Below are positions 1,586 to 8,847 of a stretch of 24,832 nt of DNA, one piece after another. This DNA is from Candidatus Margulisiibacteriota bacterium (GTDB lineage: Bacteria > Margulisbacteria > WOR-1 > O2-12-FULL-45-9), in the NCBI GenBank assembly GCA_028714935.1, contig JAQTLJ010000001.1, positions 1-24,832 on the forward strand, read 5' to 3'. The notes under the pieces are model-generated. The model was given only the letters and a program-made list of their open reading frames with translations. It did no database searches and was not told where the DNA came from. The stretch's first letter is position 1. Each line of letters starts with the position of its first letter. A program made the translations under genes and the position numbers.

Positions 1586-1843
1586 TTAGACGATAGCTGA
1601 AAAAGATGTTTTGTCTGAGGCGCTGGCGCCTTCGACAGGAGAAAGACCCGAGGATCTAAGCGAATAAACATCCTGGAACCCGGGGACCGGCTGCAGCTGC
1701 GCCGTGACTTCATCGAACTTATCGCGCAGCACATCCATAAAATTCGTGCCGGAACCGGAGCCAGAGCCCGAACCGGACGTTCTTGGCCCAATTCTTGACA
1801 GCGTTGGACTGATTTGTCTCCCAATTTGATCTGCACTAGCCAT
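1586..1843 (-). CDS. 85-aa hypothetical protein with a Gly-Ser linker
   Basis: It fills the gap between serS and the FmdB gene. Sequence features are TSGSGSGSGSGT followed by an amphipathic NFMDVLRDKFDEV. The ATG lies 9 nt downstream of a conserved promoter-like motif. I recognise no family. Confidence 0.55.
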   Translation of the reverse strand: MASADQIGRQISPTLSRIGPRTSGSGSGSGSGTNFMDVLRDKFDEVTAQLQPVPGFQDVYSLRSSGLSPVEGASASDKTSFSAIV

Positions 1844-1852
1844 ACAATAATA

Positions 1853-1879
1853 TATCGGATCAAACAGGAAAAAACTTGC
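1853..1879 (-). promoter_or_regulatory. Sigma28 (FliA/SigD/WhiG)-like promoter, copy 1
   Basis: Minus strand GCAAGTT (1879-1873)-N14-CCGATA (1858-1853). It resembles the consensus TAAAGTTT...GCCGATAA and has the same boxes and spacing as copy 2. Confidence 0.6.
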
Positions 1880-1894
1880 GTCCGAACCTAGCAG

Positions 1895-3148
1895 CTATAA
1901 ATAATGCTTAAGAACTTCCGGTACATCTATCGTCCCGTCAGCTCTCTGGTAATTCTCCAAGATAGCAGCAAAACAGCGGCCAACAGCAAGTCCCGAACCG
2001 TTAAGAGTATGGACAAACTCCGGTTTGGCGTCTTTTTCCGGCCGATAACGGATCCCCGCCCGCCTCGCCTGGAACGACTCAAAGTTGGAGCACGAAGAAA
2101 TTTCCCGGTACTGGTTCTCGCTCGGGAACCAGACCTCAAGGTCATAAGTTTTGGCTGAGGCAAAACCGAGGTCGCCGGTCGACAGCTCAACCACTCGATA
2201 TGGCAAGTTGAGTTTTTGCAGGACTGCTTCCGCGTCTTTGGTTAAACTTTCCAGCTCCTCATAAGATCTTCCCGGCTCCACGAATTTGACCAATTCGACT
2301 TTATTGAACTGGTGCTGGCGGATCAAACCTTTGACATCTTTACCGTACGAGCCGGCTTCCCTTCTAAAGCAGGGGGTGTAGGCGCAATATTTTATCGGTA
2401 GAGAGTCGGGCGGCAGAATCTCTTCGCGATGCAGGTTAGTAACCGAAACTTCAGCCGTCGGGATCAAATATAACTCATCATCACGGCATTTGAATAATTC
2501 TTCTTCAAATTTCGGCAACTGCCCCGTCCCTTTCATGCTCTCCGGTTTGACCATGACTGGCGTAAGGACTTCGGTATAGCCGTGTTCTTTGACATGGAGA
2601 TCAAGCATAAAGTTAATGAGCGCCCGCTCCAAGGCGGCGCCGAGCCCTTTATACACCGCAAATCTTGAACCGGAAACTTTGGCCGCGCGGTCAAAATCAA
2701 GGATATCAAGCTTTTTGCCGATCTCATCATGCGCTAACGGTTTGAACTCGAACTTCCGCTTCTCTCCCCAGGAACGAACCTCAATATTATCCCGGGAATC
2801 AACCCCCACCGGGACGGAAATATGCGGCACATTGGGCATCTCCAGCGCGATCTCGTTAACTTTCAGCTCGATCTTTGATTGTTCCTCATCCAAACCTTTG
2901 ATCCGGGAAGAGAGCTCCTTTGTTTCCGCGATCAGCGTATCCGCGTTCTTCTTCTCCTTTTTCAAGGCGGCAACCTCATCAGACGCTTTGTTCCGTTTGG
3001 CTTTGAGCTCATCGATCGCCAGCGTTAGCTTGCGCCATTCCTCATCGGCCGCGAGGAAACGATCGGCCAGTAAAAGATCAGCCTTCCGGTTCTTCAAGGC
3101 CTGTTTGACCGCTTCCGGATTATTGCGTATTAATTTTGGATCAAGCAT
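1895..3148 (-). CDS. serS: Seryl-tRNA synthetase
   Basis: [13 protein letters not shown]-terminal coiled coil, [53 protein letters not shown]. Confidence 0.98.
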
Positions 3149-3149
3149 G

Positions 3150-7070: not shown

Positions 7071-7097
7071 CAAGTGAGGCTTAAAGGAGAACAAGAA

Positions 7098-7688
7098 ATG
7101 AGCGGATTGGTCCTGGTCGGTGAATGTTATAGCGGCCTGCTCTGCCTGCCCGGCAGCCGATACCGGCGCATCACCCTGGCAACCCCGCAGGCGCTCAAGA
7201 AATTCGATAATCACCCCAAGCTGCAGCAAGCCGTCAATGAAATGACCGACCCCAAAACCGCCAACCCGGCGACCTTTTACATGCTTGGCGTCGTTCCGCA
7301 AGTTTTTCTCGGTGGCAGGGGGCAGATAAGCATCGGAATGCATCTGCGGGAACATTTGGACCAAGAAGCTGCGCTGTATGACAAGGCGCGCCGGGCTTTA
7401 TGCAGTATTGCGCCCGGTGTCCATCGGCTCGTCCTGTTCAAAAAGAACGGGGTTGAGGCCTCTCCCGATATTGCCAGTCTGCCGGATGACCTTTATTCCG
7501 CCATGCTGGCGAAATTAAATGGCGAGCATCGGGACCCTGAATTTAAGAACGTTGTCGCCGTCAGCGTAACCGATGATCCTTTTGACTGCATTGAGACCAG
7601 AGAGGATGGGAATGCGATAAAATTTTCCCGCTCACTTTTGGAAAGGGCCGAATTCTGGGCGCATATTGAAGAAAAAGTGCCAGAATAA
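7098..7688 (+). CDS. Hypothetical protein, possibly a degenerate MraZ/AbrB-fold protein with a C-terminal extension
   Basis: A strong SD (AAAGGAG) lies before ATG 7098. TFYMLGVVPQVFLGGRGQISIGMHLREHL and SIAPGVHRLVLF echo the second MraZ repeat. The CDS is well supported; the fold call is tentative. Confidence 0.5.
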   Translation: MSGLVLVGECYSGLLCLPGSRYRRITLATPQALKKFDNHPKLQQAVNEMTDPKTANPATFYMLGVVPQVFLGGRGQISIGMHLREHLDQEAALYDKARRALCSIAPGVHRLVLFKKNGVEASPDIASLPDDLYSAMLAKLNGEHRDPEFKNVVAVSVTDDPFDCIETREDGNAIKFSRSLLERAEFWAHIEEKVPE

Positions 7689-7691
7689 ATT

Positions 7692-8792
7692 TTAGGCCGC
7701 AGCAGCCGTCAGTTGATCGACCACGATTGCCTCAAAGCTTGGCCTGCCGTTCCTGATAACCGCCGCCCCAAATTGATTGGGAATATTGCCGTGGATTATA
7801 AAGTGATTGATTCCCCTGAAAGATTGATAAGCCCAACCCCGCGCTTCGTCAGGCGTATGGCCGGTCAGAAAATATGTAAATGAGGGTGATGCTCTCAAGC
7901 CCAATTTAGTTATCATCGCCAGTACGTCCCTGATGACATAATACCGCTCCGCCTTTTCAGGTTTAACCCTAACTATTTCGGCCAGGTCCTTTTCTTCAAT
8001 GTGCCGATTGACCAGCAGCTGCTTGAACACGCTGGCATCGTTCCTTGCGTTGACTAGTTCGGCTTGGGTAATTCCGCCCCGCACGATACCGGCATGGGAC
8101 AGATAGGTGGCCCCCTGACCTCCCTCTATGATCACCGCCAGAGCACAGCCGTCAAAAAATGCCTGGTAGGCGGCCGCATAGCGGCTAATATTGTCTTGAG
8201 AATACCCTTCTTGTTTCAGGAAATCCTGAAGATAAAAGTAAAATGCTATAGCCTGAGGGACCCCACCCTTTGCTTCGTTCATCTGAAAATCCTTTGATTT
8301 GATCACATCGTGGTTGCCCAGTAAAAAATGAACCTGCTCGGGGAACATCTGTTTCAAACGGATGACAGTATTGAGCACCTGCAGTGAAGACCGCATCTCG
8401 CCAAGCCCGTTGGGATTTTCGGGATGGATCGCATCTCCCAGAAAAACCAGGTTGATTTCCCCGGCCGCCAGCCTGGCTCCGTATTTCCTTAATATTGCAT
8501 CAAGCCGGGCGGCATTGCCGTGCAGGTCGCCGACAACAACAGTTTCTCTAGCGGCGTTCAATTTTATAAGCGCTCCCCGCCTGACAAATAATTGGCTGGT
8601 GACCTTGGCTTCATCTGCCAAGTAACTTACAATGTGAATTAATTCCGATAATTGAAAAGTATGACTAAGGTTGGCCACGTTCAGCCGGCGGTAGACTTCA
8701 GAGATTTTATGGCTGACTCCGGGCAGAAGGCTTTTTAAGCCGGAGACCGCTTTCTTCCAGAATGATGGTTGTGCTGCCGCAACATTTGCCAT
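7692..8792 (-). CDS. Calcineurin-like (PPP-type) metallophosphoesterase with an N-terminal extension
   Basis: Metal-binding motifs VGDLHGN, FLGDAIH, LLGNHD, LSHAG and TGHTP. A GGGGG SD lies 11 nt before ATG 8792. Confidence 0.85.
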   Translation of the reverse strand: MANVAAAQPSFWKKAVSGLKSLLPGVSHKISEVYRRLNVANLSHTFQLSELIHIVSYLADEAKVTSQLFVRRGALIKLNAARETVVVGDLHGNAARLDAILRKYGARLAAGEINLVFLGDAIHPENPNGLGEMRSSLQVLNTVIRLKQMFPEQVHFLLGNHDVIKSKDFQMNEAKGGVPQAIAFYFYLQDFLKQEGYSQDNISRYAAAYQAFFDGCALAVIIEGGQGATYLSHAGIVRGGITQAELVNARNDASVFKQLLVNRHIEEKDLAEIVRVKPEKAERYYVIRDVLAMITKLGLRASPSFTYFLTGHTPDEARGWAYQSFRGINHFIIHGNIPNQFGAAVIRNGRPSFEAIVVDQLTAAAA

Positions 8793-8820
8793 TAAATGTA
8801 AATCCCCCTGTTAATATTAT

Positions 8821-8847
8821 TATCGGTTTTTAGCCCTAATAACTTGC
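8821..8847 (-). promoter_or_regulatory. Sigma28-like promoter, copy 2
   Basis: Minus strand GCAAGTT (8847-8841)-N14-CCGATA (8826-8821), followed by ATAAT and then the SD of the phosphoesterase gene. Confidence 0.6.

Follow-up and report, generated by a model that had tools for sequence, protein, structure and literature searches.

The window analysed here, a stretch of 24,832 nucleotides (nt), is contig 1 of a metagenome-assembled genome (MAG; 1.16 Mb, 165 contigs, 52% GC, 71% complete; G000 in our genome labels) of the class Saganbacteria. Two of its genes, encoding an orphan protein of 85 amino acids (aa) and a metallophosphoesterase of 366 aa, lie among housekeeping genes (serS, cysS, trpG-like and methyltransferase genes), and each is preceded on its coding strand by the same two boxes, GCAAGTT and CCGATA, separated by 14 nt (P1 and P2, respectively, in Table 1); no good sigma-70-like site was found directly 5' of either gene. 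The initial annotation of this DNA had described this layout correctly, including the housekeeping surroundings, and had proposed a sigma-28-like promoter of a dispersed regulon. Its core interpretation, namely that both genes belong to a sigma-28-type regulon, is supported by the analysis described below.

Table 1. Features of the window around the two box pairs (positions are those of the window)
Feature	Position	Strand	Remarks
Putative promoter P1	1853..1879	-	GCAAGTT (-35-like), 1873-1879; CCGATA (-10-like), 1853-1858; CGA core, 1855-1857; exact match
Predicted transcription start of P1	1843..1844	-	Placed by sigma-28 geometry
85-aa orphan open reading frame	1586..1843	-	Saganbacteria-specific small family
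Putative promoter P2	8821..8847	-	GCAAGTT (-35-like), 8841-8847; CCGATA (-10-like), 8821-8826; exact match
Predicted transcription start of P2	8812	-	Placed by sigma-28 geometry
366-aa calcineurin-like metallophosphoesterase	7692..8792	-	PPP/ApaH-like; Pfam Metallophos, E = 8e-11
Zn-ribbon protein gene	1309..1545	-	Zn_ribbon_8; 40 nt 3' of the 85-aa orphan

The pattern GCAAGTT-N{13,15}-CCGATA matched the window exactly twice, both times on the minus strand with an N14 spacer, and it matched none of 100 dinucleotide-preserving shuffles of the window (0.00 expected). GCAAGTT by itself was not enriched (6 copies seen, 3.1 expected), and the enrichment concerned the two-box arrangement only. The further copies at 2203, 7298, 16922 and 23862 all lacked a partner box, as had been claimed for four such copies, one of them placed at about 7309 instead of 7298.

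P1 scored 37.3 bits with the position weight matrix (PWM) of the motif. Its end is separated by 9 nt from the start codon (ATG) of the 85-aa open reading frame (ORF), and no Shine-Dalgarno sequence is present. The transcription starts of P1 and P2 were placed by analogy, because the flipped -11A of sigma-28 promoters corresponds to the A of CGA (PMC12784957). The predicted start of P1 is 11-12 nt past this A, at the ATG or 1 nt before it, and the mRNA for the 85-aa orphan would be leaderless. In the orthologue of G011 the ATG falls exactly on the predicted +1; since the distance from the -10 box to the ATG is 9-13 nt for the orthologues in G011, G019 and this genome, leaderless or near-leaderless mRNAs are predicted for them. 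The orphan family (65-85 aa) has a conserved core, NFMxVLRDxF...PGxPxVY, and neither a Pfam family nor a Sec signal was found for the 85-aa protein. The motif also precedes the orthologues in G008, G019, G011 (syntenic with the window) and G003. No terminator-like site was found in the gap between the orphan gene and the Zn-ribbon gene, and the latter may share the transcript from P1. P2 scored 40.0 bits; the 28 nt from its end to the ATG of the metallophosphoesterase gene contain GGGGGA, and the predicted 5' untranslated region of about 20 nt would include this Shine-Dalgarno sequence. The metallophosphoesterase has an N-terminal extension of about 85 aa, lacks a Sec signal, and is only weakly similar to the Ser/Thr phosphatase BSU1 and to ApaH. 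A related-locus search of the genome contigs found nothing for this locus; a genome search found homologues in 15 of 41 class genomes. Eight relatives that span family, order and class (G004, G011, G028, G016, G017, G009, G007 and G040) have the same type of motif 5' of their homologues.

When the whole genome was scanned with the PWM, 26 sites exceeded 12 bits, as compared with 1-4 in shuffled genomes, and the top 20 sites scored 26-49 bits. Relaxed searches gave the consensus a[T/C]GCAAGTTTTt-N-(c)CGATA[A/T][T/A]AT, in which CGATA[A/T] is invariant or nearly so among all top sites. The pattern GCAAG-N17-CGATA occurs 20 times (2 times for the reversed control), and the spacing variants N16 and N18 have 1 site each; thus, the spacing is rigid. 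Strict sites are intergenic in 12 of 13 cases, though ORFs of at least 90 aa span 92% of the genome, and the strong sites are all oriented to a gene that starts 6-160 nt downstream. These sequence statistics confirm the motif as genuine and mark it as a putative promoter type with about 20 sites in this genome, and the expectation that the motif would exceed its background frequency genome-wide was borne out. It is hardly conceivable that the boxes belong instead to a dispersed repeat (for example, the end of a mobile element or a miniature inverted-repeat transposable element) that stands before genes by chance and has no regulatory role. Several copies are indeed near-identical over about 40 nt (e.g., C3:10056 and C150), but conservation is confined to the two boxes while spacer and flanks vary freely, the motif is kept 5' of orthologues across families despite diverged flanks, and the copies all face the adjacent gene at promoter distance.

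The motif is not peculiar to this genome. The strict pattern was present at 6-25 copies per genome in all of the 41 class genomes (reversed control, 0-3), where GCAAGTT and CGATA are almost always 15 nt apart (N15), and at 0-11 copies per genome in other classes of the phylum. Among 60 sites sampled from five relatives, nearly all precede a Shine-Dalgarno sequence and a start codon located 10-120 nt downstream.

In published sigma-28 promoters the -10 element is GCCGATAA and the -35 element is TCTAAAG; in the fliC promoter of P. aeruginosa, TCTAAAG...GCCGATAA, this gives TAAAG-N16-CGA (PMC12784957). Flagellin was detected with Pfam models in 15 of 121 sampled phylum genomes, in other classes, and the flagellin genes of these flagellated members are preceded by TAAAG-N15-CCGA[T/A]AAT, that is, by a canonical sigma-28 promoter. 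The class motif retains the -10 core of this promoter (the essential CGA of GCCGATAA), and the distance between its boxes is fixed, as in sigma-28 promoters (11-12 bp between 8-mer boxes). Its -35 element is tGCAAG instead of cTAAAG; AAG is common to both and the two preceding bases differ. The spacer is 1 bp longer (GCAAG-N17-CGA in the class, TAAAG-N16-CGA in the canonical form), in agreement with the one-base difference from sigma-28 noted in the initial annotation. This genome shows no enrichment of the canonical TAAAG form (3 sites, 3 in the control). Because the -10 core is kept and the canonical form is not enriched, the motif appears to be Saganbacteria's own version of the sigma-28 promoter.

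Two explanations that dispense with a sigma-28-type factor were weighed against these data. The motif could be the strongest class of promoters of the housekeeping factor RpoD, with GATAAT as a near-consensus -10 and GCAAGT as an odd -35; the genome has a normal RpoD, and GATAAT agrees with TATAAT at 5 of 6 positions. However, the tRNA genes of this genome have an extended -10, TGnTAnAAT, upstream, some of them with TTGACA, and the motif was found at none of their upstream regions; housekeeping identity was rejected on this ground. Besides, hardly any site departs from C and G in CGA, whereas sigma-70 needs T at -12, the TG extension is absent, about 20 near-perfect sites at one spacing are typical of an alternative sigma factor, and no ribosomal, tRNA or other core gene is among the targets. 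We regard this explanation as very improbable. Only slightly less improbable is that GCAAGTTTTT is the binding site of an activator or repressor beside an ordinary promoter and not a -35 element. The upstream box, aTGCAAGTTTTt, exceeds the length of a typical -35 hexamer, and a motif-specific regulator could account for it. Against this stand the rigid distance between the boxes (20 sites at N17, 1 at N16 and 1 at N18), the downstream box, which is a sigma-28 and not a sigma-70 -10 element, and the alignment of the upstream box with the -35 element TAAAG(TTT) of the kin flagellin promoters at a nearly equal distance.

As for the factor that would read the promoter, four sigma factors were found in the genome: a normal RpoD, a 162-aa extracytoplasmic function (ECF) sigma factor on contig 77, and two with FliA/WhiG as the best family. 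The first of the latter, of 240 aa, matched FliA_WhiG best with 135.7 bits, aligned to model positions 2-224 with regions 2, 3 and 4, and had Streptomyces WhiG (PDB 6PFV) as its closest solved structure (E = 1.8e-21). Its gene lies in a flgI/rod-binding protein/sigma/flgB/flgC/fliE/fliF/fliG/fliH/fliI cluster, and it was found in 46 of 48 class genomes sampled. The second, of 193 aa, matched FliA_WhiG best with 80.3 bits but has only regions 2 and 4. It was found in 41 of 41 class genomes, and in most relatives its gene directly follows flhA. In region 4.2 it carries a FliA-like helix, LSESQVSRI (VSESRVSQL in FliA); the residue after this helix is Cys within Saganbacteria and Tyr in lineages outside the class. 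The corresponding helix of the 240-aa sigma is SRPKVCRLL or SRSKVNRI in Saganbacteria as against SKSKVSRLH in other classes, and the non-Saganbacteria form also occurs in out-of-class lineages with moderate motif counts. The genome further encodes FlhA, FliI, FliPQR, FlhB and rod and ring genes; thus, the sigma-28-like factor and flagellar export genes whose presence had been anticipated do exist in it.

Two small ORFs are conserved directly 5' of the 193-aa sigma gene (G000 C86, L004:1217-1420 and 1018-1251, plus strand; also in G003, G016 and G034). The first encodes a basic 68-76-aa protein with the motif ...PPxLRASWxFxxNxAxRF..., and its stop codon overlaps the sigma start codon; the second encodes a 78-90-aa protein. 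Neither has a Pfam family, and both are candidates for an anti-sigma factor or co-factor. FlgM, which the initial annotation had named as a companion to be sought, was absent from the Pfam results in all five genomes searched; the 85-aa orphan and the 81-aa protein of the C6 cluster (see below), considered as FlgM, were rejected with the same result, neither protein having any family match.

The promoter could also be read by another sigma factor, that is, the 162-aa ECF sigma or a factor outside the 71%-complete MAG, in which case the likeness to sigma-28 would be convergent. The genome is incomplete, an ECF sigma is present, and neither FliA-like sigma attains the curated family cut-off. ECF promoters are typically of the GAAC-N16-CGT type. 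CGATAAT is unlike this type, both of the flagellar-type operons carrying the two FliA-like sigma genes are motif-headed, and the motif and both sigmas occur class-wide; for these reasons we think a different reader unlikely.

Several observations weigh against assigning the promoter to the FliA/WhiG-like factors. Both score below the curated cut-off of NCBIfam TIGR02479 (135.7 and 80.3 against 189.6 bits). Homologues of both occur phylum-wide, including lineages with almost no strict motif matches, and the 193-aa sigma keeps an identical recognition helix where TAAAG is the form in use. The motif was absent from the 2 kb around each sigma gene, and the link between them is made by the operon structure in relatives. 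Two positions of the -35 element depart from the sigma-28 consensus, and conservation does not extend to the upstream 'GC' of the extended -10. The public runs with the window sequence are landfill-metagenome DNA only, and promoter activity and starts are predicted. Even so, we consider it likely that the two boxes are a promoter read by a sigma factor of the FliA/WhiG (sigma-28) family, in a Saganbacteria-specific version with the -10 element (C)CGATAWWAT built on the sigma-28 CGA core, the -35 element tGCAAG and a spacer extended by 1 bp. The reader would be either the 193-aa or the 240-aa sigma. This promoter type would head about 20 transcription units in this genome, including both window genes, a FliK-like/FlhB-C-like/FlgF/FlgG operon, a fliK gene (which starts fliK...flhBA in relatives), a Ser/Thr kinase gene, giant ORFs and small orphans. 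Autoregulation of the sigma genes is suggested, because in relatives each of them is part of, or adjacent to, a motif-headed operon. The non-flagellar members would be co-expressed with the flagellar-type apparatus and possibly exported by it.

There are two flagellar-type operons, each associated with one sigma gene, and both are motif-headed in this genome or in a relative. The motif heads a fliK/flgE-like/fliMN/fliO/P/Q/R/flhB/flhA operon in G010 and G034, and a weaker variant stands at the head of fliK...flhBA in G016 and on C82 of this genome. A site of 44 bits on C44 of this genome heads FliK-like(FliK2)/FlhB-C-like/FlgF/FlgG; in G031 the same motif-headed unit runs on through flgA, flgH, flgI and the 240-aa sigma gene, while C79 of this genome has sigma/flgB/flgC/fliE/fliF/fliG/fliH/fliI. 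Two peculiarities of these operons were also observed. A stand-alone FlhB C-terminal (autocleavage) domain protein of 128-131 aa has a gene of its own, besides the one for a full-length FlhB, in the interval from the FliK-like gene to flgF (G000 C44, L277:1294-1680, minus strand; G031, L276:1354-1746, plus strand), and panD (aspartate decarboxylase) lies inside the operon of G031, in the gap between flgA and flgH (G031:C1:86084-86422; L276:4285-4623, plus strand).

FlhA was found in 40 and FliI above the cut-off in 38 of the 41 class genomes, and FlgH in 4 of 4 near-complete genomes; FliF, FliH, FlgB, FlgC, FliE, FlgI, FliO, FliP, FliM/N and FlgA were identified besides. By contrast with these retained parts, Flagellin_N and FliG_C were each found in 1 of 41 class genomes, MotB_plug in 1 of 5 genomes and FliD_C in none of five near-complete ones, and no FlgK match was above the cut-off. 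The C-terminal domain of FliG is the torque-generating one. The FliG of this genome, encoded between fliF and fliH-fliI (C79, L210:1328-1792, minus strand), is a 154-aa protein with FliG_N and FliG_M only. Because the same Pfam models succeed in those few lineages that do have flagellin, FliG_C and MotB, real loss is likelier than detection failure. The class apparatus appears to be flagellum-like, with gate, ATPase, rod and rings kept and with the parts of filament and motor mostly not found. Note that the sole Flagellin_N match in the class is a 253-aa protein of G019 (G019:C4, L136:1408-2166, plus strand) in which a Sec-type signal peptide is fused to the flagellin N-domain; it has no motif upstream and looks like a repurposed relic. 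Owing to the Sec-like signal peptide and the lack of the motif, it was discarded as uninformative.

The other targets in this genome comprise giant ORFs of 3091 aa, >2777 aa, >1278 aa and 795 aa, a 381-aa Ser/Thr kinase, and, besides the phosphoesterase, many Pfam-less proteins of 64-517 aa. Few of 60 motif-driven proteins of relatives have Pfam domains; these include FliK, Pkinase, SLH, Big_9/cadherin/PKD, hydrolases and YkuD. When 81 motif-driven proteins of six genomes were compared with one another by BLASTP, 57 of them had no relative in the set, and a crude Sec-like signal was seen in 14. A dispersed regulon of orphans that includes a phosphatase, as had been proposed, is therefore what the targets look like: they are mostly Pfam-less and fast-evolving, with a Ser/Thr kinase in addition. 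The initial annotation had described the N-termini of the two window proteins as likely unstructured and without a Sec signal. The N-termini are enriched in S, T, P, N, Q and G (0.40 against 0.29 for the background), and a polar trend without Sec signals is seen regulon-wide, but the bias is not confined to the N-terminus; residues 36-60 are biased nearly equally (0.37), and therefore general disorder and not a specific N-terminal signal is indicated. Export of the regulon proteins by the flagellar-type apparatus is plausible.

Some loci of the regulon deserve description in their own right. The C6 cluster of this genome (L092:383-6170, plus strand) has three motif sites in 3.4 kb, which would drive Pfam-less proteins of 81, 117, 103, 707, 172 and 128 aa, and is followed by a GT2-TPR glycosyltransferase gene; the layout recalls late flagellar/flagellin-glycosylation islands, and no Pfam support was found for its being a divergent flgM-flgN-flgK-flagellin-fliS cluster. 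Between the motif and the giant ORFs there is a conserved leader RNA (G000 C3, ~517-610 and ~10067-10160; C150, ~810-931, minus strand; C14, ~7349-7440; corresponding loci L093:311-405, L089:311-405, L090:810-931, minus strand, and L091:311-405). It consists of a 5' hairpin with the loop ATTGCCTGTT followed, just before the ATG, by a terminator-like hairpin (AACCAA...TTGG and a T-run), and the second loop, AACAGGC, is complementary to GCCTGTT of the first; the leader is a candidate attenuator or kissing-loop element. An Rfam search of the 5' leaders of motif-driven genes gave no known RNA family. Control of the GGA-containing giant-ORF leaders by CsrA/FliW was considered and rejected, since neither CsrA nor FliW was found in G000, G016, G031, G036 and G040. 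On C108 of this genome (L102:576-635, minus strand), a match to the nhaA-I riboswitch (51.6 bits, which exceeds the gathering score) was found near a weak motif site that has no ORF downstream.

A wider interpretation, which we put forward only tentatively and hold to be rather doubtful, is that the Saganbacteria flagellum has become a non-rotating, filament-less type III export machine, that the retuned sigma-28 regulon co-expresses the machine and its cargo, and that this would be a second independent transition from flagellum to secretion alongside the injectisome. The machine would keep the P/L rings, and as its cargo each genome would supply about 20 rapidly evolving proteins that lack Sec signals: giant adhesin-like proteins, the eukaryote-like Ser/Thr kinase, the phosphoesterase of the window (PPP-like) and small proteins, the 85-aa orphan among others.

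What appears to be new is the changed -35 element with its longer spacer, the presence of the motif throughout the class, and its coupling to a machine of the flagellar type that would lack filament and motor: no literature on these points was found, and a literature search found no paper on Saganbacteria flagella or secretion systems. For this uncultured lineage, a class in rank and a sibling of Cyanobacteria, the result offers a regulatory code that can be tested, made up of a single promoter motif, two sigmas as candidate readers and about 20 targets in each genome. It gives a regulatory context to dozens of orphan genes, both window genes included, and the gene content of the regulon suggests protein export or cell-cell interaction over motility. 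It would also be a natural case of promoter and sigma drift that can be traced within one phylum, from TAAAG to GCAAG at -35 with a spacer longer by 1 bp.

Among the nearest known systems are the class-3 flagellar promoters of sigma-28 (FliA/SigD), in E. coli TAAAGTTT-N11-GCCGATAA. Both have a two-box architecture, with a CGA core followed by TAA/TAT and a -35 element in which AAG is followed by a T-rich stretch, and in both the promoter heads flagellar-type operons and FliA-like sigma genes lie inside flagellar clusters. They differ in the -35 element, in the spacer and in the 'GC' of the -10, as described above. Furthermore, the Saganbacteria promoter heads early genes (export gate, rod and rings) and not late ones only, and its targets are mostly non-flagellar orphans, flagellin and FlgM not having been found. 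Filament-less flagellar basal bodies are used or proposed as protein exporters in Buchnera, and the injectisome is a derivative of the flagellum. In common with the filament-less basal bodies, the Saganbacteria apparatus retains export gate, ATPase, rod and rings, whereas flagellin, cap, hook-filament junction, stator and the FliG C-domain were not found in the searches described above. Unlike in Buchnera, the pattern is class-wide and belongs to free-living or landfill/groundwater MAGs, not to an insect endosymbiont; it differs from the injectisome in having no secretin-based architecture, since the FlgH/FlgI rings are kept, and from the filament-less basal bodies in that the apparatus would be coupled to its own sigma-28-type orphan regulon. 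Streptomyces WhiG, which controls sporulation, is a FliA/WhiG-family sigma repurposed for non-motility genes (PMC12871210), as is suggested here; the Saganbacteria targets, in contrast, are tied to a flagellar-type export machine. The sigma-28 regulon of Chlamydia, which comprises late genes of a non-flagellated bacterium with a type III secretion system (10.1101/322701; PMC12282069), is a further parallel, in which a sigma-28-family factor has been kept without a flagellar filament and drives non-flagellar genes. The apparatus of Chlamydia is an injectisome, and its sigma-28 targets are few and linked to development, whereas the Saganbacteria apparatus is of the flagellar type (FlgB/C/F/G, FlgH/I and FliE/F), and the putative regulon has about 20 members and includes the apparatus itself.

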